Shown piece after piece: positions 21,067 through 42,707 of a DNA stretch of 43,596 nt. Position 1 is the first letter of the stretch, and the number at the start of each line of letters is the position of its first letter. The stretch comes from a phage. The notes beneath the pieces were generated by a model. That model worked only from the letters and a program-made list of their open reading frames with translations. It was not told the origin of the DNA and ran no database searches. The DNA is taken from sequence record PX871048.2; one strand, written 5' to 3'. The position numbers were made by a program, and so were the translations under genes.

Positions 21067-21095
21067 TTGCACACCCCAACATAATAGGATACTAT
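21067..21095 (+). promoter_or_regulatory. sigma70-type promoter, class I (TTGCAC-17-TACTAT) with AATAG-N4-CTATT palindrome over -10
   Basis: TTGCAC ACCCCAACATAATAGGA TACTAT; identical 33-mer at 42676-42707 on minus. Confidence 0.65.
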
Positions 21096-22057: not shown

Positions 22058-22099
22058 TGTTATATTGTAACAATAGTTTGGGATTTTACTGAGTGACTT

Positions 22100-22130
22100 A
22101 CGCTGCTACACAGCAGCGTATCATTTTTCT
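22100..22130 (+). terminator. rho-independent terminator (ACGCTGCT-ACAC-AGCAGCGT plus T-run)
   Basis: 8-bp stem then TCATTTTTCTCATTTTT. Confidence 0.6.
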
Positions 22131-22190
22131 CATTTTTGTTCTATTTCACCAAACGCAACAATCGAAGCGACTATTGCAGGAGATGCAATA

Positions 22191-22364
22191 ATGGTTACTA
22201 AAGAACAGGCCGAACGACTAATCACGTTAATCGACACGATGATTGATGTGAAAACCGATTCAGCAACGGCAACAGAGGAATCCAGTACCTGGTCGCTTGA
22301 AGAAAGAGAAGCAGAAGCGGAGCGCGAGTTACAGGCGTTCATCGATTCAATAACACACCAATAA
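22191..22364 (+). CDS. hypothetical protein (57 aa)
   Basis: AGGAG RBS 6 nt upstream of ATG; replaces spurious antisense track ORF 22130..22381. Confidence 0.4.
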   Translation: MVTKEQAERLITLIDTMIDVKTDSATATEESSTWSLEEREAEAERELQAFIDSITHQ

Positions 22365-22371
22365 AATTTAC

Positions 22372-22400
22372 TTGCACACACAGATATAATAGACTACTAT
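22372..22400 (+). promoter_or_regulatory. sigma70-type promoter, class I (TTGCAC-17-TACTAT) with palindrome
   Basis: TTGCAC ACACAGATATAATAGAC TACTAT; leader begins ATCGAAACGAGAGGAG. Confidence 0.65.
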
Positions 22401-22429
22401 TCAGTTATCGAAACGAGAGGAGAGAGAAG

Positions 22430-22567
22430 ATGGGCTGGTACGGTAGCTGGGCATTAGGTGAACTGGTAGACGCTTACGAAATAATGGGTAGCACTTCGGT
22501 GTGCGACGGTGACACTAAATCGCTGCTAGTCGGGGTCGATGAGAAAAGGGGTGAAGACGATGAATAA
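22430..22567 (+). CDS. hypothetical protein (45 aa)
   Basis: first ORF after promoter, RBS GAGGAGAG. Confidence 0.4.
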   Translation: MGWYGSWALGELVDAYEIMGSTSVCDGDTKSLLVGVDEKRGEDDE

Positions 22568-22715
22568 TTTCGTGGTGCAAGCAATGTACGCTGAGGAAAT
22601 GGCAAAAAGTATGTTAGAGCAAACATTACATTTCGCTAAGCTGCAAGGGTTCGACGTACAGACAGTAGGCGACGAAATAGTATTGACCGAGAAGTCGGAG
22701 AACGGCGATGAGTAA
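22560..22715 (+). CDS. hypothetical protein (51 aa)
   Basis: overlaps neighbours by 8 nt each side. Confidence 0.35.
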   Translation: MNNFVVQAMYAEEMAKSMLEQTLHFAKLQGFDVQTVGDEIVLTEKSENGDE

Positions 22716-23184
22716 CAACGACGCAGTAATCGAGTTCCTGCTTAACCAACTACGGCAGCAGTTAACTAACAACCCGTACAAGCAACAGTGCGAAGACCTG
22801 GCGCATGAGGTGCTGTCACTTAAGAATCAGTTACGTGACGCGTCGGAGCTGGTGGCTGAGTTACAGAGCGAGTTACAACATCAGATTGACCTGGCGGCAG
22901 GCGTGTATAGATGGTCTACCGCGCATTTCGACGAGAAAGGTAAAGTCTTCAAGGTCGAGAGTGGGGTTAAGACAGAGCAATCCGGTTGCCGGAAGGAAGA
23001 TACCCAGGGATGCGAGCATGATTGGGTGCTAGATGAAAAAGGGGACTACTTCATTTGCGCTAAATGCGGTAAGCAAGAATCGGAATTGAGCGATTGCCAA
23101 CACGCTAATACCGTCGGTTTGCGCAAAGGCTTTGCGCCGGGTTTTACTAAAAAGTGTCTTGATTGCGGGGCTAAACTGAAATGA
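22708..23184 (+). CDS. zinc-ribbon protein (two CxxC pairs)
   Basis: 158 aa; CAKCG..CLDCG. Confidence 0.5.
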   Translation: MSNNDAVIEFLLNQLRQQLTNNPYKQQCEDLAHEVLSLKNQLRDASELVAELQSELQHQIDLAAGVYRWSTAHFDEKGKVFKVESGVKTEQSGCRKEDTQGCEHDWVLDEKGDYFICAKCGKQESELSDCQHANTVGLRKGFAPGFTKKCLDCGAKLK

Positions 23185-23384
23185 CCAGCATCTTATTTAT
23201 CTGGGTACTGTCCGCAGGCCAGATGCACCTGGCGGCATCAGAAACGTTTTACTCGATGGAGGCGTGCCAGTCAGCAGCACGCGCCGCAGAGAACGCGCAC
23301 TTTCTGTTTCAGGGCGATAAGCCCGACGATTCAGAGGTACGCGCTATCTGCTCACCTAAGCGACTTGGTAAACAGGAGAAGTGA
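23181..23384 (+). CDS. hypothetical protein with N-terminal hydrophobic segment
   Basis: 67 aa, ATGA overlap. Confidence 0.45.
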   Translation: MTSILFIWVLSAGQMHLAASETFYSMEACQSAARAAENAHFLFQGDKPDDSEVRAICSPKRLGKQEK

Positions 23385-23386
23385 TT

Positions 23387-23659
23387 ATGGTACAGAGATA
23401 CGATTTAAAAGAAGACTGTGTTACAGGGCATATTGACTTAGAGAAAGACGCAGACGGTGACTGGGTGCGTTATGGGGACTACAAGGAACTGGACGGCAGT
23501 TTCCAGGACTACATAACCGCTACGGACATGGAAATCGAGGGGCTTGTGTCAAGACTGGCAGAAGTAAACGCTGAGTTACAGAAATACAAAGACCAGTTCC
23601 CGGATTACGTCGAGTGCGCGAACTGTGGGTCAATTACACATGTGGAAGGGGTGGTGTGA
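23387..23659 (+). CDS. hypothetical protein (MVQRY paralog 1)
   Basis: start ATG 23387 after GGAGAAG RBS. Confidence 0.5.
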   Translation: MVQRYDLKEDCVTGHIDLEKDADGDWVRYGDYKELDGSFQDYITATDMEIEGLVSRLAEVNAELQKYKDQFPDYVECANCGSITHVEGVV

Positions 23660-23841
23660 TGGTACAGAGATATGAAGTTAGAGGGAGTGAAATTGGAAGT
23701 GGCGCGGATTGGGTCGCGGTCGTTACCTATGCGGATTACGTAAAACTTGAGCTTAAGTTACGTAGGCTTGCCAAACAGGTGATAGACCGCCAGTGCGACT
23801 GGAAGACGTATGAATTAGCGCGCGAGATTCTCGACCTATGA
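23659..23841 (+). CDS. hypothetical protein (MVQRY paralog 2)
   Basis: starts ATGGTACAGAGATA like the preceding gene; start moved to 23659. Confidence 0.45.
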   Translation: MVQRYEVRGSEIGSGADWVAVVTYADYVKLELKLRRLAKQVIDRQCDWKTYELAREILDL

Positions 23842-24131
23842 GCCTCGCAACTGACATCCTGAAACGAAGCGGCCTTACGCCGCTATCACCGAGAGCGAAC
23901 ACCCGGATATACAAGCGCCGCCGTAATTCGCTATACTCTGAGATTCAGGCCAGACGCAAAGCTGTCCGAGCCTGTGGATTCCAGAACGGGAAGGCCGTGA
24001 ACCTCGGTGAGTTTAAAACAAAGGAACGCGCCGCAATCGCTAATCGGCTATTTAATTACTGGAAATCGCTGGGGTACGATGATATTCCGACGAAACCGCA
24101 GAGACGGCAATACATCTGGAGACACAAATAA
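23838..24131 (+). CDS. basic protein, function unknown
   Basis: 97 aa, K/R-rich. Confidence 0.45.
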   Translation: MSLATDILKRSGLTPLSPRANTRIYKRRRNSLYSEIQARRKAVRACGFQNGKAVNLGEFKTKERAAIANRLFNYWKSLGYDDIPTKPQRRQYIWRHK

Positions 24132-24206
24132 ACCGTTATTAGGATAATTCCTACCCGTGGTATCCTCCAGTTACTGCATACTTAATACGCACCTGGAGGA
24201 TTCATC

Positions 24207-24515
24207 TTGGATAAATTTACTGAAACAGTGACAGGCTGGCTTCTGGCTGCCGCGCTAGCCGGAGGGGTAATCGGGCTACGACAACATAAGTCCGCTATTT
24301 CCGGCCCTATCGACGGATTCTGCTTTATCGCAACTGGCTTCACTTGCGCTGTATTTGGCGCACCTCTTGCCGCTCAATGGTTTGGAATCACGGGCGACCG
24401 TGAAATCGCTGGCCTGGGCTTCATTATCGCTATTCTCTGGATGCCTATCTATTCCCGTCTCTCCGGTATCGTTGCCGGAGAATACATCGCGCGTCGAGGA
24501 GGCACAGATGAATGA
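24207..24515 (+). CDS. putative holin (three predicted TM segments)
   Basis: TTG start after GGAGGA RBS; 102 aa; immediately upstream of endolysin. Confidence 0.55.
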   Translation: MDKFTETVTGWLLAAALAGGVIGLRQHKSAISGPIDGFCFIATGFTCAVFGAPLAAQWFGITGDREIAGLGFIIAILWMPIYSRLSGIVAGEYIARRGGTDE

Positions 24516-24780
24516 GTTATTCTGGTTCGGCGGTATGCTGGCAATCGGGGGTACATCGCTGTTTAATGTGTACCATCCCAGCGTTGATGACGGGCTGTTC
24601 GGCCGGGTGCTCTATATCCTGACTGCTATCGTCTGCGCCGCCGGATGTATCCACCTGTTACAGGGCAGCATGTCACCAACACTGCCCGAGACATTAATCA
24701 CATTAGTTGCGCTACGCCAGATTCGCCAGGCGTGGTTATCGTACGGAGGACATAAGCGTGTCTCGAAACATTTCAGATAA
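24508..24780 (+). CDS. putative second holin/antiholin (two TM segments)
   Basis: ATG 24508 after GAGGAGG; 90 aa membrane protein between holin and endolysin. Confidence 0.45.
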   Translation: MNELFWFGGMLAIGGTSLFNVYHPSVDDGLFGRVLYILTAIVCAAGCIHLLQGSMSPTLPETLITLVALRQIRQAWLSYGGHKRVSKHFR

Positions 24781-25243
24781 TGGATTGCATTTCACCGCTG
24801 CGTTCGAGGGATTCCGCGGGACTGCGTATCGTGCTACGCCTAACGAGAAGTACCTTACCATAGGCTACGGTAATTACGGCCCGCATGTTAAGGCGGGGCA
24901 AACCATCACGCCGGGGCAAGGCCTCCTGTTACTGAATCGCGATATGGCTAAGGCCGTAGCTGCGGTTGATGCAGCAGCGCACCATTCGCTTACACAGGCA
25001 CAGTTCGATGCAGTGTGCGACCTGGTGTATAACGCAGGTGCCGGCGTGATTGCCGCTACCACTGGTACGGGTAAGGCGCTGCGCACAGGCGATATTGCGA
25101 CGCTGCGGGCTAAGCTAGCGCTGTTCATAAACCAGAACGGCAAACCGCTACTCGGCTTGCGTCGCCGTACAGCCGGGAGACTGGCATTATTTGACGGTAA
25201 ACCGTGGCAAGAGGCTGAGGCTATTGGGAGGGCTGTTAAATGA
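24758..25243 (+). CDS. endolysin, GH24 phage lysozyme family
   Basis: FEGFRG..YLTIGYG and C-terminal LGLRRRTAGRLALF resemble T4/P22-type lysozymes; GTG start 24758 after GGAGGA. Confidence 0.7.
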   Translation: MSRNISDNGLHFTAAFEGFRGTAYRATPNEKYLTIGYGNYGPHVKAGQTITPGQGLLLLNRDMAKAVAAVDAAAHHSLTQAQFDAVCDLVYNAGAGVIAATTGTGKALRTGDIATLRAKLALFINQNGKPLLGLRRRTAGRLALFDGKPWQEAEAIGRAVK

Positions 25244-25370
25244 TGGACGAATATGAAGGCGTTTAGTAAACTTATCCCTACGCTGCTTGTGCTTGCATAC
25301 TAAGCCCCGGTAAACCTGAAGCAGCAGCCCAAGCGGTGGAGACTGCGTAGGGTTCAGGGGCTTATGACCG

Positions 25371-25402
25371 AAACCCGGACCGCGAATCCGGGTTTTATTT
25401 TA
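25371..25402 (+). terminator. rho-independent terminator (ACCCGGA..TCCGGGT plus TTTTATTTT)
   Basis: hairpin plus T-run after lysis genes. Confidence 0.7.
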
Positions 25403-25475
25403 CCAATTGACACCTAAGACTAATCCGACGATACTTAAATCACCTCCTGTTCTATCCCTCTGCTCTCCAGTTTTA

Positions 25476-25509
25476 TCCCGGCCCTGACCCAGCCGGGATT
25501 TTTTTTATC
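25476..25509 (+). terminator. second rho-independent terminator (CCCGGC..GCCGGG plus T9)
   Basis: tandem to previous terminator. Confidence 0.75.
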
Positions 25510-25528
25510 CATTTTCTGCTATGACTAG

Positions 25529-25557
25529 TTGACTATTACCCTCGACCCTATTATATT
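25529..25557 (+). promoter_or_regulatory. sigma70-type promoter TTGACT-17-TATATT
   Basis: consensus-like hexamers; leader begins ATCGACAACGAGA like the leaders at 21067 and 22372. Confidence 0.55.
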
Positions 25558-25590
25558 TACTCCATCGACAACGAGAACGGAGTAGAGAAG

Positions 25591-25668
25591 ATGAGTAACT
25601 TCCATAACGAACATGTGATGCAGTTCTACCGCAATAATCTGAAAACTAAAGGAGTGTTTGGAAAATGA
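25591..25668 (+). CDS. hypothetical peptide (25 aa)
   Basis: GGAG RBS; ATGA-coupled to next ORF. Confidence 0.3.
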
Positions 25669-25814
25669 AAATCACAGATATCGAAGCATTCAAAGACGCA
25701 CAACTGATGGCACGTATCGCCGTTAGTAACCTTAGTAGCAGTATCCCCGCTGACGCGTTCTGGTTCGCTGCGATGCAGACACTTAAAGCAGCATATGCAG
25801 GAGAGAAGAAATGA
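25665..25814 (+). CDS. hypothetical protein (49 aa)
   Basis: ATGA overlaps at both ends. Confidence 0.35.
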
Positions 25815-26008
25815 AAGTTAAAGCAGCTAAAATTCTCTGGTTACCCGCCCTTGACTATGTGACAGAGGGTAAAGTGTATGACGTATACAACCCGAAAACT
25901 ACTGGTTTTGGTTATATAGTTGCCGATGACGGCTGTGATATTTACATAGACTTTGGTAGCGATGAAGGTGATGGTTTCCACGGCGTTAAATGGGAGATTG
26001 TCGAATGA
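25811..26008 (+). CDS. hypothetical protein
   Basis: 65-aa ORF in track. Confidence 0.45.
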   Translation: MKVKAAKILWLPALDYVTEGKVYDVYNPKTTGFGYIVADDGCDIYIDFGSDEGDGFHGVKWEIVE

Positions 26009-26160
26009 GCGAACAAACACCAATCAGCCAACCGTTACGAGTAGGCCGTAAAGTCAGTCACATCCCGTTCCCGACACGCGAGGAACTGATGAAACGTAAC
26101 AGTTTCCCGGGACCGGACAAGAACAAGTATCTCAATCGCATGTGGGGAGAGAAGAAATGA
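26005..26160 (+). CDS. hypothetical protein (51 aa)
   Basis: ATGA overlap with upstream and downstream genes. Confidence 0.35.
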   Translation: MSEQTPISQPLRVGRKVSHIPFPTREELMKRNSFPGPDKNKYLNRMWGEKK

Positions 26161-26393
26161 CTGACCGTGAATACGAAAAGATGATGGTAGAGGCTGTTAA
26201 CGGCGGCATAGACATCAGCCACGTGATGCACGTCCTGAATACTAAAATCGCTGTAGCGGAGCAAATGGTTGAGTCGCTTTATGAGACGCGCCGTGAACTG
26301 ATTAACCGCTTCAACCTAAATAAGGGGCGCGCTATTTCTGATGATTTCGATGGTGATTACCGAAATGGTGATTTTTATGAGGGAGCCGAATAA
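26157..26393 (+). CDS. hypothetical protein
   Basis: ATG 26157 (MTDREYEK) after GGGGAGAGAAG. Confidence 0.45.
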   Translation: MTDREYEKMMVEAVNGGIDISHVMHVLNTKIAVAEQMVESLYETRRELINRFNLNKGRAISDDFDGDYRNGDFYEGAE

Positions 26394-26632
26394 TGCCTAA
26401 AATCACAATCGCATCGCTGGAGCGCCGTATTCTGGTGCTTGAGTCAGAGAAACAGACGTTAGGCGGGCAACTGTCAATTAATGGTGAGTTTCAACTGGAG
26501 GCGTTTAAGTTGTTGCTTGATAAGTTGAAAGCGGACGAAAAGCCTTGCGAGCACGATTACTACCTACATGTGGTTGGTGGATTACATCGGGCCACGTGCA
26601 TCAAATGCGGTAAAGCGTATGGAGTCGCCTAA
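26393..26632 (+). CDS. zinc-ribbon protein
   Basis: CEHDYYLHVVGGLHRATCIKCG. Confidence 0.45.
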   Translation: MPKITIASLERRILVLESEKQTLGGQLSINGEFQLEAFKLLLDKLKADEKPCEHDYYLHVVGGLHRATCIKCGKAYGVA

Positions 26633-26801
26633 GCCGGTAGTTATTGAGGGCGTCCTGTGGAAACCTTACTCGGTTAACCACATCGACGCCGACGGGAAGA
26701 AGTTCAGCTTCTACATTTTTGCAATTAGCCGGGAGCACGCCGCTTGTGTGGTAGACGATATACGAGAAACGGCGTGGCTTGGTGATGAGATAGTGGGGTA
26801 A
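26617..26801 (+). CDS. hypothetical protein (start uncertain, 26568 or 26617)
   Basis: ORF in track, alternative internal ATG. Confidence 0.35.
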
Positions 26802-26805
26802 GAGT

Positions 26806-26889
26806 ATGAGTCTAGAGGTGGTTATCGGTCTGGTTGGTCTTAGTTACTTCGTTGGGCTGTTGGTCGGGTTTATGTGGGGTAGATACTAA
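26806..26889 (+). CDS. small hydrophobic peptide (27 aa)
   Basis: single TM-like segment; TAATG overlap with next gene. Confidence 0.3.
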   Translation: MSLEVVIGLVGLSYFVGLLVGFMWGRY

Positions 26890-27170
26890 TGGCACGCACT
26901 GTTGCATCGAGATTCACTGATATTGAATCTGCGATAGAAGAAGCTGTTTATAGCAAATTCTGTAACCCCTCTGCGACCCATAACTATGGGGTTATTATTA
27001 AATACGGCAAGTTTGAAATCAGGAGAGTGCGCGCCGGTCGTCCGCACGAGTTTTTATGGACCACAGAAAGCCTCATCCCGCGATGCCACGTTTACACAAG
27101 CGGTGCACATACGATTTTTGTAGACCTGGACAAGAAAGATATTACTGTCACTAAAGGAGAGACAAATTGA
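26889..27170 (+). CDS. hypothetical protein
   Basis: 93-aa ORF. Confidence 0.45.
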   Translation: MARTVASRFTDIESAIEEAVYSKFCNPSATHNYGVIIKYGKFEIRRVRAGRPHEFLWTTESLIPRCHVYTSGAHTIFVDLDKKDITVTKGETN

Positions 27171-27403
27171 TTACCAGCATCCCTAAACTGATCGAAGAGT
27201 ACGGCAATATGTCTGAGACATGCCGACAAACCGGCATCAGCGAAATGACGATTGCGAAGTACCGCAACGACGTGAACTGCGAGCGACATGTAATTTATAA
27301 CAACCGTCTGATGACACACGTTAAGACAAGCCCGGTGTTATTCACGCGCCGTGGTATCACTAAAACTGAGCAACGCATTGCTAAAGAGGAGAGCGGGGAA
27401 TGA
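27167..27403 (+). CDS. HTH DNA-binding protein, candidate late-gene regulator
   Basis: NMSETCRQTGISEMTIAKY HTH-like segment; last sizeable gene before the late-operon control region. Confidence 0.4.
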   Translation: MITSIPKLIEEYGNMSETCRQTGISEMTIAKYRNDVNCERHVIYNNRLMTHVKTSPVLFTRRGITKTEQRIAKEESGE

Positions 27404-27501
27404 AATTGCTAATCATCCCTAACGCTTGGGCTATCGCTGTAGCTAACGACCACTACGGCGGCGACGGTAAAAGAGCACCGCGACACGGCCTATATAACTG
27501 A
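27400..27501 (+). CDS. hypothetical peptide (33 aa)
   Basis: ATGA-coupled; below cutoff. Confidence 0.3.
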   Translation: MKLLIIPNAWAIAVANDHYGGDGKRAPRHGLYN

Positions 27502-27504
27502 TAC

Positions 27505-27530
27505 AAGCCCTCTACGGAGGGCTTTTCTGT
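27505..27530 (+). terminator. rho-independent terminator (AGCCCTC-TACG-GAGGGCT plus T-run)
   Basis: hairpin then TTTTCTGT. Confidence 0.6.
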
Positions 27531-27542
27531 ACATCCCGCCCA

Positions 27543-27624
27543 ATCCCCTTATATAATCCCTTTAGACGCGCAGGGCGCGTCTGGTGCGCTCTGATGGTCA
27601 GACGCATATGCAAGGGGATTATAT
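27543..27624 (+). promoter_or_regulatory. late-operon control region: TATAAT-like box, 10-bp inverted repeat ATATAATCCC/GGGATTATAT flanking perfect hairpin AGACGCGC-AGG-GCGCGTCT
   Basis: symmetric structure immediately upstream of small terminase start. Confidence 0.4.
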
Positions 27625-28171
27625 GAAGCTGAAACTCAAGCAGCCATCGCCAGAGGTGGTGCAAGCTGCACATGAAGAAGCTGTTAGCGCAAACCGTCGC
27701 CGTAAACGACCGCGCGGTGAACAGAGCCTTTATCAATCGTCCCGTAATTCCGCAGCGTTGTGGGACACGGACTATTGCGACGAATTGATTCGTTTCTTCG
27801 ACCGCACGTCATGGGAGGCTATGCCGACCGGTGCGCACGGAGACTACAAAGCAGTCATTGCGGATAAACCGCCATCACTGGCTCGCTTCGCCTTACACAT
27901 CGGTGTCACTATCCCGATTATTAAGCTGTGGCTGCGTGAGATTCCGGCTTTCGCAGAAGCCTATGAAACTGCACAGGCGCTGGAAGAGGCGTATTTCACC
28001 GAGACCGGGGCCGCCGGTATCTCGGCTACGTTTGCCGCCGCGAAGCTGGGCCTCGGAAAAGAGAAACCAGTTGAATCAAGCGAAGAAACTGCACCTACTG
28101 AGATTATTTTCAGTGTTGCAGAGCCCGTGGGTAAAATCGTAACAACGAATATGGGTGAGGTAGAGGAATGA
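27623..28171 (+). CDS. terminase small subunit
   Basis: 182 aa directly upstream of and overlapping large terminase; RBS AAGGGGA; start 27623. Confidence 0.55.
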   Translation: MKLKLKQPSPEVVQAAHEEAVSANRRRKRPRGEQSLYQSSRNSAALWDTDYCDELIRFFDRTSWEAMPTGAHGDYKAVIADKPPSLARFALHIGVTIPIIKLWLREIPAFAEAYETAQALEEAYFTETGAAGISATFAAAKLGLGKEKPVESSEETAPTEIIFSVAEPVGKIVTTNMGEVEE

Positions 28172-29418
28172 GTATTCAGCTATCCGCCCCGCAGGCACTG
28201 TTCCTGAATTGCGATAACAAATACAAGGCCTATGTCGGCGGCTTCGGCAGCGGCAAGACATTTGTCGGCTGTCTGGACCTGCTTACTTTTATGCTAAAGC
28301 ATCCCGGTACGCGCCTCGGTTACTTCGGACCAACATACCCGGCCATCCGCGACATCTTCTACCCGACATTCGAGGAAGCGGCTAACCTGCTCGGCCTCGA
28401 TGTTCTGGTTAAATCCGGAGATAAAGAGGTTGTTGTTACCCGCGGTAAGACGGTGCTCGGAACTGTTATCTGCCGCTCGATGGATAACCCCGGCTCGATA
28501 GTCGGCTTCAAAATCGCGGCTGCGGTCGTGGATGAGCTGGACGTATTGAGCCGCGAGAAAGCTGAGCTGGCGTGGAACAAAATCGTAGCCCGTATGCGTC
28601 TTGTTATTCCTGGCGTAACCAACCACATCTCTGTAACCACGACGCCGGAAGGGTTCAAGTTCGTCTACGCCAAGTTCAAAGAGAATCCGACACCGAGTTA
28701 TTCAATGGTGCAGGCTTCCACTCACGAGAACGCGCGGTTCCTGCCGCCTGACTACATTAGTTCGCTGACCGAGACTTACCCCGCGCAACTGATTAACGCG
28801 TACCTGAACGGGGAGTTCGTCAACCTGACATCCGGCAGCGTGTACTACGCCTATGACCGCCGTAAGCATCGCAGCAAAGAGACAATTCAACCGGGCGACA
28901 CGTTGTACATCGGGCAGGACTTCAACGTTACGAAGAACGCCAGCGCCGTGTATGTACAGCGTAAAGATGGCTGGCACGCGGTGGCGGAACTGAAGGGTCT
29001 GTTCGATACGCCAGACACCGTGCGTGTAATTACTGAGAAGTGGAAGTCCCAAGGACACCGCATCGTCGTTTACCCCGACGCCAGCGGCAAGAACCGCAAG
29101 ACAAACTCGGCATCAATCTCAGATATCGCATTACTCCAGCAGGCCGGTTTTGATGTTCGCGCTAAACCAGCCAACCCTCCGGTTAAAGACCGTGTTTTAG
29201 CAGTGAATACCGCGCTGGAAAAAGGTAAGCTGTGGGTTAATGACCACTTATGCCCGGAGATAGCCAAGACGCTGGAGCAGCAGGCATACGACGATAACGG
29301 AGAGCCCGCTAAAGACGGCGTTATCGACCATATGGCGGATGCTCTCGGCTATCCTGTAGTTTACGAGATGCCGGTGGTTAAACCAGTAATCAACATCCCG
29401 GTGACTTTCGCACTTTAA
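28168..29418 (+). CDS. terminase large subunit
   Basis: Walker A GGFGSGKT, Walker B AAVVDELD, nuclease-like C-terminus; 416 aa. Confidence 0.85.
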   Translation: MSIQLSAPQALFLNCDNKYKAYVGGFGSGKTFVGCLDLLTFMLKHPGTRLGYFGPTYPAIRDIFYPTFEEAANLLGLDVLVKSGDKEVVVTRGKTVLGTVICRSMDNPGSIVGFKIAAAVVDELDVLSREKAELAWNKIVARMRLVIPGVTNHISVTTTPEGFKFVYAKFKENPTPSYSMVQASTHENARFLPPDYISSLTETYPAQLINAYLNGEFVNLTSGSVYYAYDRRKHRSKETIQPGDTLYIGQDFNVTKNASAVYVQRKDGWHAVAELKGLFDTPDTVRVITEKWKSQGHRIVVYPDASGKNRKTNSASISDIALLQQAGFDVRAKPANPPVKDRVLAVNTALEKGKLWVNDHLCPEIAKTLEQQAYDDNGEPAKDGVIDHMADALGYPVVYEMPVVKPVINIPVTFAL

Positions 29419-29430
29419 GAGGATTATTCA

Positions 29431-30903
29431 ATGTTAACTATGAACGGTCAGAATCAGGGTGTTAAGACAAAACACCAGGAATGGCTGCAGCACTTCAATA
29501 AATGGCAGAAGGTTCGCCATGCTCTGGAAGGCGACCTTATTCGCTATCTTCGCAACGTCGGGAAGAATGAGCCTGACCCGACCTACGCGGCCCAGCGCCA
29601 GGAAGAATACGAGAACGGCGCCATCTGCTACAACTTCACCAAACGTACCCTGGCGGGGATGGTCGGCAGCGTTATGCGTAAAGACCCCGAGCAGATTATC
29701 CCGCCTGAACTGGAGTACCTGTTGCGCAACGCCGACGGTTCCGGTGTCGGGCTGTGGCAGCACGCGCAGGATACGCTAATGGAGATTGACTCAGTGGGCC
29801 GTGGCGGGTTGCTGGTGGACGCCCCGGAGACAGCCGCAGCAACGGCGGCAGAGCAGAACGCAGGGTTGTTAAACCCGGTCATCGCATTCTACACCGCAGA
29901 GAACATCATCAACTGGCGGCTGACACGCATCGGTTCAGTTAACCGCGTGACGATGGTCGTGCTGCGCGAGGCATGGGAGTACTCAGAACCTGGCGCGGAA
30001 TTTGATACCAAGTTCGGCGAGCAATACCGCGTCCTTGACCTGATTGACGGTCGCTACCGCCAGCGCATCTATCGCTTCGATGCCGAAGGTGGCGCTCAGG
30101 ATGAAGTAATCGAAATATTCCCGGAGCTTGGCGAACAGTTGCGCGGCAAAATCCCGTTCACGTTCATTGGGGCAAGCAACAACGATGCAACCATTGACGA
30201 CGCACCTTTGCTGCCGTTGGCTGAGCTTAATATTGGGCATTTCCGCAACAGCGCGGACAATGAGGAATCCAGCTTCGTTGTAGGGCAGCCCACTCTGTTC
30301 ATCGCCCCTGGCGAGAACATGAGCGTGGAACAGTGGAAAGAAGCCAACCCTCACGGCGTGCGCATGGGGTCGCGCTCAGGCCATAACATCGGTTACGGCG
30401 GCAACGCGTTTCTGGTTCAGGCCGGAGAGAACAACCTCGCCAAACAGAACATGCTGGATAAAGAGAATCAGGCCATCCAGATTGGTGCGCAGCTTATCAC
30501 GCCGACGCAGCAGATTACCGCTGAATCAGCCCGCCTGCAACGTGGCGCTGATACATCCGTAATGGCAACCATTGCGCGTAACGTAAGCATGGCATACACA
30601 GAGGCGTTGCGTTGGGTGGCTGCTATGCTTGGGCTGCGTGAAGGCACGGAGATTGAGTTCAAACTGAACATGGAGTTCTTCCTGCAACCGATGACGGCGC
30701 AAGACCGCGCACAGTGGATGGCAGACATTAACGCTGGTTTACTGCCAGCAACCGCCTACTACTCCGCGCTGCGTAAGGCCGGGGTAACTGACTGGACCGA
30801 CGAGGATATTCAGAACGCTATCGAAGACGCACCGCTGCCGTTAGGCGCCGCTTCTCAGGTAGCAGGAGAAATTCCGCAGTCGGCGCAGCAACAGCAGGAG
30901 TAA
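29431..30903 (+). CDS. portal protein
   Basis: 490 aa immediately after large terminase. Confidence 0.7.
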   Translation: MLTMNGQNQGVKTKHQEWLQHFNKWQKVRHALEGDLIRYLRNVGKNEPDPTYAAQRQEEYENGAICYNFTKRTLAGMVGSVMRKDPEQIIPPELEYLLRNADGSGVGLWQHAQDTLMEIDSVGRGGLLVDAPETAAATAAEQNAGLLNPVIAFYTAENIINWRLTRIGSVNRVTMVVLREAWEYSEPGAEFDTKFGEQYRVLDLIDGRYRQRIYRFDAEGGAQDEVIEIFPELGEQLRGKIPFTFIGASNNDATIDDAPLLPLAELNIGHFRNSADNEESSFVVGQPTLFIAPGENMSVEQWKEANPHGVRMGSRSGHNIGYGGNAFLVQAGENNLAKQNMLDKENQAIQIGAQLITPTQQITAESARLQRGADTSVMATIARNVSMAYTEALRWVAAMLGLREGTEIEFKLNMEFFLQPMTAQDRAQWMADINAGLLPATAYYSALRKAGVTDWTDEDIQNAIEDAPLPLGAASQVAGEIPQSAQQQQE

Positions 30904-30936
30904 AGAAAAAGGCCCCTTAAGGGGCCTTAGTTTTAT
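30904..30936. terminator. bidirectional terminator (perfect palindrome AAGGCCCCTTAAGGGGCCTT flanked by A/T runs)
   Basis: serves + portal gene and convergent minus moron gene. Confidence 0.7.
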
Positions 30937-31178
30937 CGCACTCTCATAAATAGCTTACCTTTGCGTTGCAACAAATCCATACCGACAGCACCTTCGCCAG
31001 ATTTGTTCGGACGGCGCATTAAACTAAAGTTCCATACTCTAGCTTTTGAAGCATCTTTCGCATTGCACACCCAAAGTCTACCATTTTCTCTTAGGTCAAA
31101 TAAGTCCGATATACTGAGATTATTAACCGGTATGAAACCGCCAATGAACTCACGTTCGCAACTAGGTAATTCCTGCAT
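30933..31178 (-). CDS. moron-like hypothetical protein (81 aa) antisense within late module
   Basis: own class I promoter and AGGAGGG RBS, own terminator. Confidence 0.5.
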   Translation of the reverse strand: MQELPSCEREFIGGFIPVNNLSISDLFDLRENGRLWVCNAKDASKARVWNFSLMRRPNKSGEGAVGMDLLQRKGKLFMRVR

Positions 31179-31203
31179 ACACCCTCCTGTTTAAGTTAAC
31201 TGA

Positions 31204-31232
31204 ATAGTACCCTATTATATTGGTGTCTGCAA
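31204..31232 (-). promoter_or_regulatory. sigma70-type promoter, class I variant (TTGCAG-17-TACTAT) with palindrome
   Basis: minus-strand reading TTGCAG ACACCAATATAATAGGG TACTAT. Confidence 0.6.
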
Positions 31233-31276
31233 ATATTATTTTTATGCGTTACACTGGCGATACTACAGGAGGGCAT

Positions 31277-32320
31277 ATGAGCTTACTTACATCCCTAATT
31301 AGCCACCAGATATGGCTACAACGCACCGCATCCGGCGAGGTGAAAGACCTTGCGCCGTTCATTCAGGAAATGCGGGACGAAATCAAACGGCAGGTGTTGC
31401 TGTTCGGCGACGACGGTCGCAGCACCGCGCGACTGAATAAACTGTTACGTGACCTCGAAGAAGCACTGACCGGGCTTACAGGCGACTGGCAAACGAAGCT
31501 GACAGAAGACCTAAAGGAACTGGCGGCGTATGAGGCCGAGTGGAACGTGAAGACACTGACGACTAACGTTAACGCGGAATTTGTTACGCCTACCGCCGAA
31601 CAGGTGTGGGCCGCTGCCGAGTTTCAGCCCTTATCATTAAGTGACAAGCCCGTTGATTTCGCCAAGCTGATGGATGGCTGGGGTGAAACAGAAGTATCGC
31701 GACTGGTAACTGGTGTTAAGATGGGTTTCGTTCAAGGCCAAACCACACGGCAGATTGTTAAAAATGTCGTTGGCGCTGGCGGACTGGCGGACATCTCTGA
31801 GCGCAACGCAGCTACGGTAACCCGCACCGCGCTGTCGCACATATCCAACGAAGCACGCAACGAGACGTACCGTCAGAACGACGACATCATCGAGAAATAT
31901 GAATGGGTATCGACGCTTGACAGCCGTACCAGTACGATTTGCAGAGCCAGGGACGGAATGACGTGGGAAATCGGTAAGGGGCCGATGCCCCCCGCCCATT
32001 TTGGCTGCCGAAGCACCACAGCACCTGTAATCAGTTCAGAATTCGACTTCCTCGATAAAGACGCAAAACGTGCAGCTAAGGGTGCGGACGGCGGAACTCA
32101 GGTAAGCGTGGACACCTCTTACTACGAGTTCCTAAAACAACAACCGGCATGGTTTCAGGATGAAGCACTCGGTCCTGTTCGCGGTAAGATTTTCCGCAAC
32201 AGCGGTATATCGCCGGAAGAGTTTCGCGTAATATCTGTAGATGGTTTCGGGAATCCGCTTACGCTTAAGCAGATGGCGGAACTCGATAAACGTGTTGCTG
32301 ATTATCTGAAAGGGGAATAA
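31277..32320 (+). CDS. head morphogenesis protein (Mu F-like minor head protein)
   Basis: position after portal; CxxC-like STICRARDG..HFGCRST; RBS CAGGAGGG. Confidence 0.6.
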   Translation: MSLLTSLISHQIWLQRTASGEVKDLAPFIQEMRDEIKRQVLLFGDDGRSTARLNKLLRDLEEALTGLTGDWQTKLTEDLKELAAYEAEWNVKTLTTNVNAEFVTPTAEQVWAAAEFQPLSLSDKPVDFAKLMDGWGETEVSRLVTGVKMGFVQGQTTRQIVKNVVGAGGLADISERNAATVTRTALSHISNEARNETYRQNDDIIEKYEWVSTLDSRTSTICRARDGMTWEIGKGPMPPAHFGCRSTTAPVISSEFDFLDKDAKRAAKGADGGTQVSVDTSYYEFLKQQPAWFQDEALGPVRGKIFRNSGISPEEFRVISVDGFGNPLTLKQMAELDKRVADYLKGE

Positions 32321-32781
32321 TGATGGGCTTTTTCAAAGTAACTGACGTACCTTCGCGTCGCGTTGTCCAGTTTGCTCGCGTGTCTGGCTCCGGTGAGAAC
32401 GTGGTGTCTATTGGGGACGAAAGTGTACTAGGTACGCCAGTAGATGATATGCCGTTTGCAGATAAGACCGGTATTGCGCTACCCGCCGCGGGGATGCTTT
32501 ACGAGATTCCGTATCTGGCTGACGCCGGCGACGTGTATTTCTCTGTGCAACCGCAGGACACGGAACTGGCAGACGGCAGCGCAACTATCACTGTCGAAGT
32601 TAAGGCGGGCAAAGCACCGTATGCGCTGACCTGGTACAAAGACGGGAAGGAAGTGGTAAATGCCCCTGAAGAGGCCTTGTCTCTGACAGTTAATGCGGTC
32701 GGCGAATACTTCGTTAAAGTTACTGATGCCGATGGTGTGGAGGCTGTTAGTAAAGCGGCGAAGGTCATTAAGCCAGAATAA
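32320..32781 (+). CDS. Ig-like domain protein (possible capsid decoration)
   Basis: C-terminal YALTWYKDGKEV..GEYFVKVTDADG resembles Ig-like domains. Confidence 0.45.
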   Translation: MMGFFKVTDVPSRRVVQFARVSGSGENVVSIGDESVLGTPVDDMPFADKTGIALPAAGMLYEIPYLADAGDVYFSVQPQDTELADGSATITVEVKAGKAPYALTWYKDGKEVVNAPEEALSLTVNAVGEYFVKVTDADGVEAVSKAAKVIKPE

Positions 32782-32784
32782 ACT

Positions 32785-32810
32785 GAAGCCCCGTTAAGGG
32801 GCTTTATTTC
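32785..32810. terminator. bidirectional terminator (AAGCCCC-GTTA-AGGGGCTT)
   Basis: hairpin plus T-rich tail; also ends the convergent minus small gene. Confidence 0.65.
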
Positions 32811-32819
32811 CATCAGAGT

Positions 32820-32915
32820 TCACCATTCCCCTCTATCTGCATCCTCAACCCCGCTAATAGCCCACACAAACAATCCTAAATTAACCAGTAACACAAATGA
32901 AATTGCTATCATCAT
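32820..32915 (-). CDS. small membrane peptide (31 aa), moron
   Basis: GGAGGTGG RBS then ATG; single TM; track start 33005 lies upstream of the promoter so internal ATG used. Confidence 0.45.
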   Translation of the reverse strand: MMIAISFVLLVNLGLFVWAISGVEDADRGEW

Positions 32916-32941
32916 AACCACCTCCACTAGGCATTTACTGA

Positions 32942-32970
32942 ATAGTACGCTATTATGTTGGGGTGTGCAA
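32942..32970 (-). promoter_or_regulatory. sigma70-type promoter, class I (TTGCAC-17-TACTAT) with palindrome
   Basis: minus-strand reading TTGCAC ACCCCAACATAATAGCG TACTAT. Confidence 0.65.
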
Positions 32971-33022
32971 ACTATTTGTTTACGTATTCCAGTTATTCCG
33001 CTCAATTGTAAATGTTGGAATA

Positions 33023-33038
33023 AACTATTCGAATAGTT
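33023..33038. promoter_or_regulatory. perfect 16-bp palindrome AACTATTCGAATAGTT (reversed half-site order) overlapping -35 of element B promoter
   Basis: exact inverted repeat. Confidence 0.5.
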
Positions 33039-33065
33039 GACTTTTCACTAAAAATATGATAAGCT
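33037..33065 (+). promoter_or_regulatory. promoter TTGACT-17-TGnTAAGCT driving structured element B
   Basis: same architecture as 20759-20787. Confidence 0.45.
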
Positions 33066-33168
33066 CCACCTGAGCTTGTGAAGTATGAACAAGCGACCGC
33101 GGCGCGGGCAGGTAACGGAGCGGGACGTAAGTCCTGAGTGTAGTTACGCTGACGCGTTCGGAAGGGCC
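33060..33168 (+). ncRNA. candidate structured RNA element B (paralog of 20782-20891)
   Basis: conserved blocks and compensatory stem changes relative to copy A; no ORF. Confidence 0.35.
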
Positions 33169-33243
33169 GTACCCTATTGCTTGTGTAAAAAGTAACTGGT
33201 TTACTGAGATTACGCCGTTTCTATGTTTAAATGATAAGGACTA

Positions 33244-33272
33244 GCGCCCCGCTTTATGGCGGGGCTTTACTT
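33244..33272 (+). terminator. rho-independent terminator (GCGCCCCGC-TTTATG-GCGGGGC plus T-rich)
   Basis: hairpin between element B and spanin start. Confidence 0.55.
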
Positions 33273-33289
33273 ATCGAGAAAGGAGAAAC

Positions 33290-33676
33290 ATGAATCTTAA
33301 AGCAACTGTCGTAGCGGGGGCATGTTTCATCATCCTGGCTTACGCACACGGCATCTACCAGTACCGCAGCGGCTGGAACGAAGGCCGGGCTAATCTAGCT
33401 TCACAGCAACAGCGGAAAGCACAGACCGAGTTAGCGAAGAAAACACAACGGCAGCAGCAGGACGAATCGAAGGCCGCGGCCGCTGACAACGAAGGCAAGA
33501 CGAAATCAGAGGTAATTACCCGTGAAGTCGTTAAGTACATTAAAACGCCTGGCCGCAGCGTGTGCACTTTCGACGATGCTCGCGTCCTGCTCAAGTCCCG
33601 CGCCGTCACCAACGCCAATTCCATCCCCGGATACGACAATGATGCAGCCGCCGTGCAAGCTGGCACCGCCAAGTAG
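33290..33676 (+). CDS. i-spanin (Rz-like)
   Basis: N-terminal TM (ATVVAGACFIILAYAHGIY), Q/K/E-rich periplasmic segment, overlapping lipoprotein gene in +1 frame; RBS AGGAG. Confidence 0.65.
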   Translation: MNLKATVVAGACFIILAYAHGIYQYRSGWNEGRANLASQQQRKAQTELAKKTQRQQQDESKAAAADNEGKTKSEVITREVVKYIKTPGRSVCTFDDARVLLKSRAVTNANSIPGYDNDAAAVQAGTAK

Positions 33677-33785
33677 CGACGCGGACGAGGATTTGGCTAT
33701 CGACGTTCAGAACGCCGAATGCGTACGGCAACTGAGACTGAAAGTGTTCATGTTGCAGGATTACGTGAGGAATATTCTGGAATAG
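33522..33785 (+). CDS. o-spanin (Rz1-like outer-membrane lipoprotein)
   Basis: GTG start after GAGGT RBS; signal peptide with lipobox LAS-C; Pro-rich mature part; overlaps and extends past the Rz-like gene. Confidence 0.65.
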   Translation: MKSLSTLKRLAAACALSTMLASCSSPAPSPTPIPSPDTTMMQPPCKLAPPSSDADEDLAIDVQNAECVRQLRLKVFMLQDYVRNILE

Positions 33786-33867
33786 TTGCCTTGCATGTTG
33801 GAATAATTTATTCTTGACATGTAAATCCGGGTGGCCCGGGTTCCAACGTCCAGGGGACATACTGACT

Positions 33868-40056: not shown

Positions 40057-40263
40057 TCACTCACTTTTGAATGGCATTTCGTAGAAGTTAGTTAACTGAC
40101 CTCTGTCACTCCGTTCTGTCATCTCTTTTGTCGCCTCTTCCTTGCTACCTACGGCGTAAATATCAACCCACTCATCCCATTCTTCGTCATATACGCGGAT
40201 AACGTATATTGCCCCCATTGTGCCTTCACGCATTTGGGTAAATCCCCAGGATTCTATTGGCAA
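40057..40263 (-). CDS. hypothetical acidic protein (start uncertain)
   Basis: 68-aa ORF, last gene of minus island. Confidence 0.4.
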   Translation of the reverse strand: MPIESWGFTQMREGTMGAIYVIRVYDEEWDEWVDIYAVGSKEEATKEMTERSDRGQLTNFYEMPFKSE

Positions 40264-40795
40264 CCGTGGCCGCGGTTAATGTAATCTCACCAGGAATGAT
40301 GGCGACGTCATGGCATACTACCCCATCAATATCGTACAGGTAGCCACGGCTATCCCCGTCAAACGTGTAGCCGTCTCGGTGCAAGCGGACGATTCGCACG
40401 TCATGCCCAGCGGCGACGATAGGGGCAACTTCACTGGCAAACCCACCGTCGGACACCACAAAAACTTCGTCGCCGTCAGGCAAGTTTTCAGCGAGATACT
40501 TACCGAAATAATCATTGCCAAGTACAGGCTTAATGAATTGCTCCGAGATAGCAATCATGAACTGACGTCGCGACAACCCATTAAGGAAACATTCTGGCTT
40601 TTCTTTCCGTGCCCGGTCGTCGTAGCCGTCGAGAAATTCGTGGTAAGCATCCGGGCCTAACGCTGCCCGAGCAATATTGAACATTGGATTCTTGAAACTG
40701 GTAGTTCCTTTCGCAAAGCCCATTTCTACCATCGCCATAGCAAGCGTGTCTTTCCCGCAACCCGCAGGGCCATTAAGGATAATTACCTTAGCCAT
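40226..40795 (-). CDS. P-loop nucleotide kinase, dNMP kinase-like
   Basis: Walker A LNGPAGCGKDT and VSDGGFASE..VRIVRLHRDG resemble T4 gene 1-type dNMP kinase; from memory. Confidence 0.55.
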   Translation of the reverse strand: MAKVIILNGPAGCGKDTLAMAMVEMGFAKGTTSFKNPMFNIARAALGPDAYHEFLDGYDDRARKEKPECFLNGLSRRQFMIAISEQFIKPVLGNDYFGKYLAENLPDGDEVFVVSDGGFASEVAPIVAAGHDVRIVRLHRDGYTFDGDSRGYLYDIDGVVCHDVAIIPGEITLTAATVANRILGIYPNA

Positions 40796-41280
40796 TATTT
40801 ATTGCTCCCGTGTGATTTTAAGTGTGTAGAGTTCCCGTTACAGTCGTATTCAGTAACCGCGTGCGTAGTGACTCCTAAGCCGCGGAAATGCTTAATCACC
40901 GCGGGCGAGTCGTCGAATGCGCACAATATTCTCTCCAGCCCGATAGCACGCAACACCTCTTCTTTAATTACGATGTCTTTTCTGTTGTCGTGTTTGCTGC
41001 GCATGATTAGCTGATAAAATTCGACGCGGTGGCGCTGCAGCCACATTCTGGTTTCTTTTTCTGCATCATCACTGCGGCCCGTTAAAATAATAACGGCATA
41101 GCGACGATTAAGGGCGTTACACAGTTCGATGTTATCTTTAATGGGCGCGTCATCTTTGCAGGCCATGTTAAAAGGCTTCCACGCCCATGTTTCGTTGTAG
41201 TTATCTTTCGGTAGCAGGTGTAAACGATGAGTACCGTCCGCCAATGTCCCGTCTAAATCGAAAATCACAATATCTTTCAT
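40795..41280 (-). CDS. HAD-superfamily phosphatase
   Basis: N-terminal FDLDGTL motif plus downstream ILTGR and FDD motifs. Confidence 0.6.
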   Translation of the reverse strand: MKDIVIFDLDGTLADGTHRLHLLPKDNYNETWAWKPFNMACKDDAPIKDNIELCNALNRRYAVIILTGRSDDAEKETRMWLQRHRVEFYQLIMRSKHDNRKDIVIKEEVLRAIGLERILCAFDDSPAVIKHFRGLGVTTHAVTEYDCNGNSTHLKSHGSNK

Positions 41281-42407
41281 CCCAGCATCTCCGGTGAAAT
41301 AGTTAAACGTGCAACCTCACCATATTCGGCGCTATAAGTAATTACATTTGCACTGCGCCCTGACATCCAACCGCCGCGTGAGGCATAGGCGTCTTTAGCC
41401 GCTAAGGTTCGGTGTTGCTCAACAATCATGTTACGGCTTTCTACAATCTTCTGATGGTGCAGGTGGCCTACGTGGGCGTAGCTGTAAACACTCTCTCCGA
41501 ACGCTTTGCGGAACTTAGCAATCATTACCGGTTCGATAGCGTCGAATCGTGCTTTATGCCCGTGATGGAAGAACAGCGTCGTTTTGCCGTGTTGCACCAT
41601 CTTGTAAACATCCGGCGACGTATCGACGAACACACGAGGCTCATTGTCGTACAGCGTGCTGAACATCTCAGCCAGCCAAATCATTCCGCTTTCGTCGTGG
41701 TTCCCTTGCACGATAAGCAAGCGAACATTTTTATGCTTAACGAGTGCCATATCAACAACACGGCGGACCATACGAATCATGTAGCGGACCAGTTTCTGAT
41801 AGCGCGTGTCCGCGTCAAGAACATGACCACTCGCTGGCGTAACCGCATCCAGGCTATCGAAGTGTGCAAGGTCACCTAGCAGATTAATAACACCCGTTCC
41901 TGCATCCGGCGCTTTCTGAAACGCAGCATCGAACCAGCGAGAGAACAGGTCTTCCGCAATCTTCATATCCCAGTCGTCGCCGCTCTCGTCGGCCCAGGCC
42001 AGCATACCGAGATGGAAATCAGACACAGTGTAAAGGTTGAGTAGTTTATCGTCGCGTTTAGCGCGGGCGGCTTTAACAGGCGCAACTGGCGTAATCTCTG
42101 ACTTCATGCCTTCGATTACGGCTTTCATCAACTCGACCTGACGTTCGGCGTCAGTGTCTGTCTTAACCCATTGCAACTTAGTGTTGCCGGACTCATCCAC
42201 CAGGGACGACGTCCCTTTAATCTTGTAGCCGTCAGGAACAAGGTGACTAACGTCACGCCCGTGACCCACGCCTTTCTTGGCCAGCTTCGCTTTACGGATA
42301 CGAATAACGCGGTCTGAGATGCCGTATTTACGGGCAATGTCGATATTCTTCATCCCGGCGTTCAATTCTTCCTGTAACTGTTCGTCGGTTATTTTCTTCC
42401 GGGCCAT
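41277..42407 (-). CDS. calcineurin-like metallophosphoesterase with N-terminal HTH
   Basis: DFHLG, GDLAHFD, GNHD, HHGH, GHLHH motifs; N-terminus IDIARKYGISDRVIRIRK. Confidence 0.6.
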   Translation of the reverse strand: MARKKITDEQLQEELNAGMKNIDIARKYGISDRVIRIRKAKLAKKGVGHGRDVSHLVPDGYKIKGTSSLVDESGNTKLQWVKTDTDAERQVELMKAVIEGMKSEITPVAPVKAARAKRDDKLLNLYTVSDFHLGMLAWADESGDDWDMKIAEDLFSRWFDAAFQKAPDAGTGVINLLGDLAHFDSLDAVTPASGHVLDADTRYQKLVRYMIRMVRRVVDMALVKHKNVRLLIVQGNHDESGMIWLAEMFSTLYDNEPRVFVDTSPDVYKMVQHGKTTLFFHHGHKARFDAIEPVMIAKFRKAFGESVYSYAHVGHLHHQKIVESRNMIVEQHRTLAAKDAYASRGGWMSGRSANVITYSAEYGEVARLTISPEMLG

Positions 42408-42675: not shown

Positions 42676-42707
42676 TGAATAGTATCCTATTATGTTGGGG
42701 TGTGCAA
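42676..42707 (-). promoter_or_regulatory. sigma70-type promoter, class I (TTGCAC-17-TACTAT), identical 33-mer to promoter at 21067
   Basis: minus-strand reading TTGCACACCCCAACATAATAGGATACTATTCAC. Confidence 0.65.

Follow-up and report, generated by a model that had tools for sequence, protein, structure and literature searches.

A conserved structured RNA between a promoter-like sequence and the Rz/Rz1 spanin genes of Kaguna- and Jersey-type phages

The locus, its promoter and the palindrome

The window in this study is the whole stretch of 43,596 nt of sequence record PX871048.2, the DNA of a Kagunavirus-like siphophage (subfamily Guernseyvirinae), with K1H and similar phages of E. coli and Salmonella as its nearest relatives. 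The element described here has a Hoc-like head-decoration gene on one side and the Rz/Rz1 spanin pair on the other. The holins and the endolysin are found far away from Rz/Rz1, at 24207-25243, and thus the spanins are displaced. The features of the locus are as follows (positions are those of the window):

32786-32804, both strands: terminator-like hairpin, bidirectional, closing the Hoc-like gene and a minus-strand small ORF
33023-33038: perfect 16-bp palindrome AACTATTCGAATAGTT, centred at about -41.5 relative to the predicted start
33037-33042, plus strand: -35 hexamer TTGACT of promoter P(B), sharing TT with the palindrome
33057-33065, plus strand: extended -10 TGaTAAGCT of P(B) after a 17-bp spacer (TG 33057-58, TAAGCT 33060-65)
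33074-33079 with 33089-33094, plus strand: 5'-terminal hairpin P1, GCUUGU/ACAAGC, 9-nt loop
33097-33161, plus strand: long irregular hairpin with P2a, P2b, P3, P4 and internal loops
33162-33179, plus strand: 3' flank AAGGG, 8 variable nt, (C)UAUUG, with invariant ends
33180-33205, plus strand: linker starting with GCUUGUG..AAGUAAC, which repeats part of the 5' half of P1
33206-33298, plus strand: 3' domain, a nested hairpin of 93 nt masking the Rz Shine-Dalgarno (SD) sequence (33281-85) and AUG (33290)
33246-33272, plus strand: terminator-like apex hairpin of the 3' domain, a G+C-rich 8-bp stem (33246-33265) followed by TTTACTTATC (UUUACUU)
33290-33676, plus strand: Rz-like i-spanin (PHROG 2536, Rz-like spanin, E = 3e-54)
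33522-33785, plus strand: Rz1-like lipoprotein o-spanin, overlapping Rz, with lipobox LASC in the ORF translation

The earlier note had described P(B) as TTGACT-17-TGaTAAGCT and had ascribed the same architecture to a second copy of the element in this genome (copy A). This was confirmed, the promoter of copy A being TTGACT-17-TGcTAAGCT. The -10 hexamer of P(B) agrees with the consensus at 3 of 6 positions, and thus P(B) was not listed by a consensus scan. We took it as real because the -35, the TG and TA[A/C]GCT are invariant against a variable spacer in about 50 distinct loci (53 distinct loci for the hexamers and TG of the P(B) type); the Jersey-type counterpart is T[T/A]GACT-17-TGtTACGCT. 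P(B) is probably a sigma-70 extended -10 promoter, with a transcription start that is predicted, from the spacing only, at about G33072. In addition, a -10-like repeat is present at the transcript start (TAAGCT..5..TGAGCT in the Kaguna type and TACGCT..3..TACGCT in the Jersey type).

The perfect 16-bp palindrome with the overlapping -35 was found as previously described, the TT being common to the palindrome and TTGACT. A perfect 16-bp palindrome occurs by chance with a mean of 0.68 per shuffled window, and 50% of the shuffled windows contained at least one. Since the palindrome alone is not unusual, its meaning rests on the recurrence of the half-site. The half-site 8-mer AACTATTC/GAATAGTT has six exact copies in the whole window (15000, 17556, 21057, 33023/33031 and 33780), and all six adjoin promoters. 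The motif lies within the spacer of two minus-strand TTGACA-17-TATAKT promoters (at about 15010 and 17570), and it also abuts the -35 of P(B) and the -35 of a putative scaffold promoter at 33787-33815. The earlier description of the palindrome as the half-sites of a promoter family in reversed order thus holds for the motif, which is common to other promoters, but not for a fixed order, as the arrangement varies between promoters. The palindrome is retained in nearly all copy-B loci, and Jersey-type phages have GAATACTTTATTC instead. The motif is probably the operator, and the palindrome probably the binding site, of a phage regulator. Meanwhile, the minus-strand replication genes are interrupted at 17638-17850 by a plus-strand Cro/XRE-like helix-turn-helix ORF of about 70 aa, which is followed by a terminator. 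Its product is a candidate binder of the GAATAGTT motif.

Several other features of the genome were observed. A 31-aa hydrophobic ORF (MMIAISFVLLVNLGLFVWAISGVEDADRGEW; 32820-32915, minus strand) is divergent from P(B) and has an early-family promoter at 32940-32970 (minus strand). This stretch is common only to K1H/M01-like phages, and the ORF may encode a moron-like membrane peptide. Near-identical promoters of the family TTGCACACCCCAACATAATAG..TACTATTC (ACTTATCG) are located at 21067-21095 (plus strand) and at 31212-31232, 32950-32970 and 42687-42707 (minus strand). This family probably drives early units, and three of its promoters drive minus-strand units inserted among plus-strand genes. 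Furthermore, the intergenic region 25243-25665, 3' of the endolysin gene, contains a pair of terminator-like hairpins with T-runs as well as two strong promoter-like sites, of the form TTGACA-17-GATACT and TTGACT-17-TATATT, and is probably another transcription-unit boundary. The minus-strand operon 40226-42407 comprises genes for an SbcD-like exonuclease, a dNMP kinase and a polynucleotide kinase, the last of which is a hint of nucleic-acid repair. No connection between this operon and the structured RNA was found.

Fold and distribution of the core RNA

The core RNA, which takes up the first ~108 nt of the predicted transcript, consists of the 5'-terminal hairpin P1 and the 65-nt irregular hairpin, whose flanks ACCGCGG and UUCGGAAGGG are invariant. 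Within 33097-33161 (plus strand), the helices of the irregular hairpin are as follows:

P2a, CCG(C)GG/UUCGG with a bulged C, and P2b, CGCG/CGCG
P3, CAGGUAAC/GUUAC(G)CUG, with the purine internal loop GG/A between P2b and P3
P4, CGGGAC-GUAA-GUCCUG, with the asymmetric internal loop GGAG/AGUGUA between P3 and P4

The fold was derived by hand and then tested on variants from GenBank phages, IMG/VR and metagenomes (about eight sequence classes). In the alignment, which was fitted to the model and therefore leans towards it, 94.4% of the cells pair and 14 of the 29 pairs show compensatory changes on both sides; when the partners were slid as a control, pairing dropped to 28-40%. For example, position 33103 covaries with 33156 (C:G, U:A or A:U), and at one P3 position U:A, A:U and G:C pairs all occur. 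In the Jersey type the whole of P3 is substituted by UCGCG/CGCGA and still pairs, and the sequence of P4 differs in every class with its pairing kept. P1 is lengthened to 8 bp in copy A (by U:G and G:C) and substituted by ACGCU-UUC-AGCGU in the Jersey type. In both lineages the predicted transcript begins at the base of the P1 stem, as is the case in stable RNAs. Furthermore, the same fold was the minimum free energy (MFE) structure in 10 of 11 variants folded independently, and also in the full-length leader from 33072. The core is indeed common to copies A and B, as the earlier note had it (77.5% identity over 147 nt, E = 7.5e-24).

Other pairings were also considered. An MFE pairing of CCACCUG with CAGGU plus a local hairpin was rejected in favour of the long-range model, because it needs nucleotides 5' of the predicted start and is not conserved. 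A local CCGC-GGN-GCGG hairpin is possible as an alternative fold, and ST20 has a compensating U:A there. When the GGAG/AGUGUA loop was read as a K-turn or loop-E, only the Jersey type fitted GAA/GUA.

On the 3' side, GGAAGGG-N8-UAUUG has constant spacing and a variable spacer sequence in the Kaguna A, Kaguna B and Jersey types, and no consistent pairing partner was found for CUAUUG or GGAAGGG. GGAAGGG-N8-AUUG resembles an SD and a start codon. However, a leader peptide was rejected: the AUU frame has stops in variants L007 (GAG to UAG) and L043 (UGG to UGA), and the reading frame differs between Kaguna and Jersey types. Nor is the frame conserved at its start, AUU being lost in L051 and L071/L072, and UUG in L059 and L071/L072. 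In addition, the repeat in the linker can pair with ACAAGC instead of P1 and does so in the MFE structure of the 114-nt copy-B context. The Jersey type repeats its own P1 5' half after UAUUG (GCUUUCAG; L061, 2900-2920). At locus B the repeat 3' of UAUUG is therefore found in both lineages, though their P1 sequences differ.

The results of the distribution analysis showed that Kaguna-type copy B is present in 181 phage records and the Jersey type in 269, about 450 Guernseyvirinae records in total, compared with about 455 records whose capsid protein is more than 90% identical. The element is found at this position in essentially every Kaguna- or Jersey-type phage. The diverged homologue at the same position in phage Jersey was found with model R1 (40.9 bits, E = 3e-11); its P1, P3 and P4 are substituted yet paired, and ACCGCGG, UUCGGAAGGG and UAUUG are retained. 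Klebsiella phage K21lambda1, with a capsid protein 44% identical, lacks the corresponding intergenic region. For a wider search, three degenerate DNA patterns were used in IMG/VR, one of them also in metagenomes and GTDB genomes, and all candidates were screened with model R1 or R2. In these three sources only Guernseyvirinae-like contigs passed. Among the pattern-search candidates, L177 and L193 were chance-level and L175 was a stray phage fragment. The latter (NZ_JACVEL010000048.1), a 738-bp contig of a Taishania pollutisoli assembly, has the same sequence as the Jersey-type leader of L066 and is probably phage contamination of that assembly.

Rfam 15 gave 0 matches in the whole window at gathering thresholds and only chance-level matches (≤16 bits) in 32900-33400 at E up to 10, and tRNA and tmRNA scans found nothing. 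The core is a new structured RNA family without an Rfam entry. We found no paper on this element, and the one gene-level Kagunavirus transcriptome (vB_Eco_K1B4) reports nothing on intergenic RNA (PMC12645636).

Variability is lower in the leader (pi 0.02-0.065) than in the Rz coding sequence (pi 0.06-0.13), and the non-coding region 33000-33290 as a whole likewise varies less than the latter. Nevertheless, GenBank records of relatives carry 'hypothetical protein' CDSs over the RNA (for example, Jersey gp08, Bas70-76 and Snoke gp056), which lie on different strands and frames between records and are probably mis-annotations. An ORF of 36 aa is present here at 33085-33195, so the element could be read as a small protein gene in keeping with those annotations. 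We consider this scarcely credible, because the ORFs do not agree from record to record in strand, frame or extent, copy A lacks an ATG where copy B has its ORF, 1-nt indels separate variants so that no ORF is conserved, and the helix substitutions are compensatory.

The hairpin over the Rz ribosome site and the second copy

The 3' domain (33206-33298, plus strand) is built of the following helices around the apex hairpin, and the nested hairpin has about 26-30 bp in total:

33206-33211, GAGAUU with AAUCUU, and CG with the UG of the Rz AUG: base helices
33217-33222, GUUUCU with AGAAAC (33284-33289): overlaps the Rz SD
33233-33238, GAUAAG with CUUAUC (33270-33275)

The Jersey-type 3' domain has the same architecture but is built from GUAU/AUAC, UAUACG/CGUAUA and GCCCGGC/GCCGGGC. 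Each type also has single compensatory changes of its own (L122, L073), and no other stretch of the locus varies as little as this domain (pi 0.02-0.03). Because its helices pair with the SD and AUG, the Rz ribosome site would be masked in read-through transcripts. The earlier suggestion that the region may serve to control spanin expression agrees with these results, as helices lie over the Rz SD/AUG in both lineages.

The hairpin noted before Rz does have its stem at 33246-33265, but it is not free-standing and forms the apex of the 93-nt nested hairpin. Similarly, its distance of 18 nt from the Rz ATG is true of the end of the element at 33272, whereas the stem ends 24 nt before the ATG. 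The U-tract 3' of the apex stem is weak in the Kaguna type (UUUACUU) and nearly absent in the Jersey type (UUAGCGU), and the U's of the apex are situated inside the larger conserved hairpin. Judged by these sequences, the apex hairpin is probably a leaky terminator-like site. With so weak a U-tract, the release of a discrete short RNA may depend on processing and not on termination. The nested hairpin together with the weak U-run would speak for translational control, perhaps with processing, and against a clean attenuator.

The attenuator reading of the earlier note was not borne out in other respects either. No mutually exclusive pairing of core and terminator, as in a riboswitch or attenuator, was conserved among the copy A variants, copy B and Jersey. 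Their terminator stems are unrelated and lie at different distances, 60-110 nt from the core. Because the hairpins differ among the copies and no alternative pairing is common to them, the core is not a sensor for the hairpin. In addition, the space between the apex hairpin and Rz is too small for another promoter, and thus the element at locus B is also a leader in any case.

The whole element might act purely in cis on the fate of the mRNA, the 5' hairpins guarding the spanin mRNA from 5'-end-dependent decay and the long 3' hairpin being an RNase III-type processing and translation-control site, with no effect in trans or on the polymerase. RNase III-type leader control is known in the lambda N leader and T7 mRNAs. 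The predicted 5' end at the P1 base, the compensatory changes that keep the nested hairpin over the SD/AUG, and the position of tail, hairpin and ribosome site as the most conserved part of the locus are all in keeping with such a leader. However, conserved internal loops over 65 nt, with invariant flanks, are more than a simple stabiliser would require, and copy A has the core but no adjacent ribosome site. We therefore regard a purely cis-acting leader as unlikely.

The features of locus A, all on the plus strand, are as follows:

20759-20787: P(A), TTGACT (20759-64), 17 bp, TGcTAAGCT (TAAGCT 20782-87), without palindrome
20793-20902: copy A core with P1, long hairpin and GGAAGGG..CUAUUG (111.7 bits)
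20969-21027: copy A terminator hairpin AGAGUAC...GUACUCU, then UUUU, with GUUUCU/AGAAAC flanks as in copy B
21067-21095: early promoter P2, TTGCAC-17-TACTAT, 3' of copy A, driving the rightward early genes

As copy A is followed by a terminator and then by the complete separate promoter P2, the early genes do not depend on it. Copy A was found in only 43 of the 181 Kaguna-type records, the other 138 having only copy B, and it is much more variable than copy B (74-99% identity). In K1H (L178, 3375-3600), a consensus promoter (TTGACA-17-TAAAAT) and an unrelated leader of ~190 nt replace copy A. This leader has its own GCCCCGC/GCGGGGC hairpin and is joined to the same tail, terminator and P2. The K1H-type alternative occurs in nine records (K1H, K1G and K1ind phages), and it seems that different non-coding cassettes can occupy locus A. 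Meanwhile, the B locus of L017 (2217-2334), with the palindrome upstream and a B-type tail, carries a core variant otherwise seen at A loci (compare L001 and L034), which suggests that the two loci, or different phages, have exchanged sequence by recombination or gene conversion. From the K1H replacement, the L017 variant and the optional presence of copy A, the promoter and core together appear to be an exchangeable cassette. Every copy or version ends in a hairpin of different sequence.

Copy A lies in a divergent region by the primase-helicase operon, at the minimum of the cumulative GC skew. This would suit a transcription-primed replication origin, in which a structured G-rich transcript forms a persistent hybrid like those of ColE1 RNA II or T4 origins. 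We consider an origin most improbable, since the universal copy B lies in the head-gene cluster without any skew feature, copy A is missing from most relatives, and the compensatory changes preserve RNA helices and not a DNA motif.

Proposed function and relation to known systems

The reading that we favour, tentatively and as somewhat short of probable, is a dual output of the locus: a stable structured RNA that acts via a putative partner, and a read-through, translationally masked spanin mRNA. Transcription from P(B) would start at about 33072, and the first ~108 nt would fold as the core. The next ~110 nt would form the nested hairpin, with a weak intrinsic terminator at its tip and its base on the Rz SD and start codon. 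One product would be a stable RNA of ~200 nt, ended at or processed in the long hairpin, which could act in trans; the other would be the Rz/Rz1 mRNA made by read-through, whose masked ribosome site would throttle spanin synthesis. The core would sense nothing for the terminator and would instead bind a protein partner from the host or the phage. The mobility of the cassette with its promoter, and the second copy at the head of the early region in some phages, would follow from such a partner-binding core.

No partner, seed or target for the core was found in the phage genome or in E. coli genomes. Its complementarity to the phage's own genome was at chance level only. A BLAST search of the core against 5,426 E. 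coli genomes gave no match, and host mimicry or a prophage origin was rejected on this ground. Likewise, no seed match was found in E. coli genomes by BLAST, which is blind to seeds of 7-10 nt.

The element belongs to a broad known kind, the promoter-proximal leader RNAs and sRNAs of phages, and its fold is new. Like protein-binding RNAs (6S RNA, CsrB-type RNAs, Y RNA and phi29 pRNA), it has its own promoter, high conservation and a conserved structure rather than a linear seed. Unlike them, it has no repeated GGA motifs, no open-promoter mimic and no loop-loop complementarity, and it shows no Rfam similarity. The lambda PR'-6S RNA-tR' system is similar to the proposed dual-output unit in its constitutive-looking promoter, its ~200-nt RNA ending at a terminator ahead of lysis genes and its read-through late mRNA. 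However, lambda 6S RNA has no conserved fold and is controlled by Q at a DNA site, whereas the RNA fold is conserved here. In addition, only the spanins follow the present element, the holins and endolysin being elsewhere. With regard to Q/qut, the -10-like repeat at the transcript start and the palindrome at -41.5 are present, and no Q-like protein was found among those scanned.

A processive antitermination leader of the put/nut kind is the other explanation that has to be weighed against dual output. The nascent core would make its own RNA polymerase resist the apex hairpin and later terminators, such as one after the capsid gene, with copies A and B each serving one of two long rightward transcription units. 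The put RNA confers terminator resistance on RNA polymerase in cis via the beta' zinc-binding domain, without proteins. The lambda PL leader contains nutL and an RNase III hairpin that masks the N ribosome site. Like HK022 putL and putR, the element is promoter-proximal, lies at the 5' end of the transcript upstream of terminators, has two stem-loops, occurs as two paralogous copies in one genome and has a -10-like sequence in or near it. putL likewise lies at the very start of its transcript, its distance from the promoter being fixed, and has a -10-like sequence with sigma-dependent pausing (PMC9378689). The core here has that fixed distance at all loci, its -10-like repeat recalls the sigma-dependent pausing at putL and lambda PR', and each of its two copies precedes a terminator-like hairpin and a long series of genes on the same strand. 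The downstream hairpins differ in sequence, as they would if the core acted on the polymerase rather than on the hairpin. Furthermore, the ~218-nt leader with its ribosome-site-masking hairpin resembles the lambda PL-nutL-N leader (~220 nt) in having an RNA recognition element upstream and a long hairpin over the ribosome site of the downstream gene.

However, the likeness to HK022 put in the two stem-loops is resemblance and not homology. Model R1 gave no match in the HK022 early region (22000-33000, E up to 10), and Rfam gave none there either, hence no put model was available for comparison. The element is ~108 nt versus ~70 nt for put, its second copy is optional, and its universal copy precedes lysis and head genes rather than early genes, in a virulent siphovirus rather than a lambdoid phage. 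Unlike the lambda PL leader, it lacks boxA and boxB, and the first ORF 3' of copy A has no arginine-rich product. Of the 20 proteins scanned, none was N- or Q-like. Three other points also speak against antitermination. Most Kaguna-type records (138 of 181) do with copy B only; the core at locus A is interchangeable with an unrelated leader, after which P2 follows; and a separate promoter-like site (TTGCCT-17-TATTCT, 33787-33815, conserved in Jersey) lies 5' of the scaffold and capsid genes, so that P(B) may serve only Rz/Rz1. We regard antitermination as possible, though rather doubtful. Its boldest form, in which the core would be a second, evolutionarily independent and self-sufficient RNA that reprograms E. 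coli/Salmonella RNA polymerase in cis, is improbable. If true, it would be the first anti-pausing or antitermination without a dedicated protein outside lambdoid phages, and it would act in virulent siphoviruses at a promoter feeding lysis and head genes.

Kaguna- and Jersey-type phages are among the most often isolated coliphages and Salmonella phages and are widely proposed for therapy and food safety. Their ~110-nt RNA is more conserved than the neighbouring genes, yet it is unannotated or mis-annotated in hundreds of GenBank records. Mutants can already be chosen from the covariation-supported model, from the natural A, B and Jersey variants and from the K1H replacement, and promoter, RNA, hairpin and ribosome site make up a compact, testable system of ~260 bp for spanin expression in virulent phages. 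The element also bears on the question of whether phages more widely use RNA structures to act on host proteins or on the transcription machinery, beyond the single example of put.
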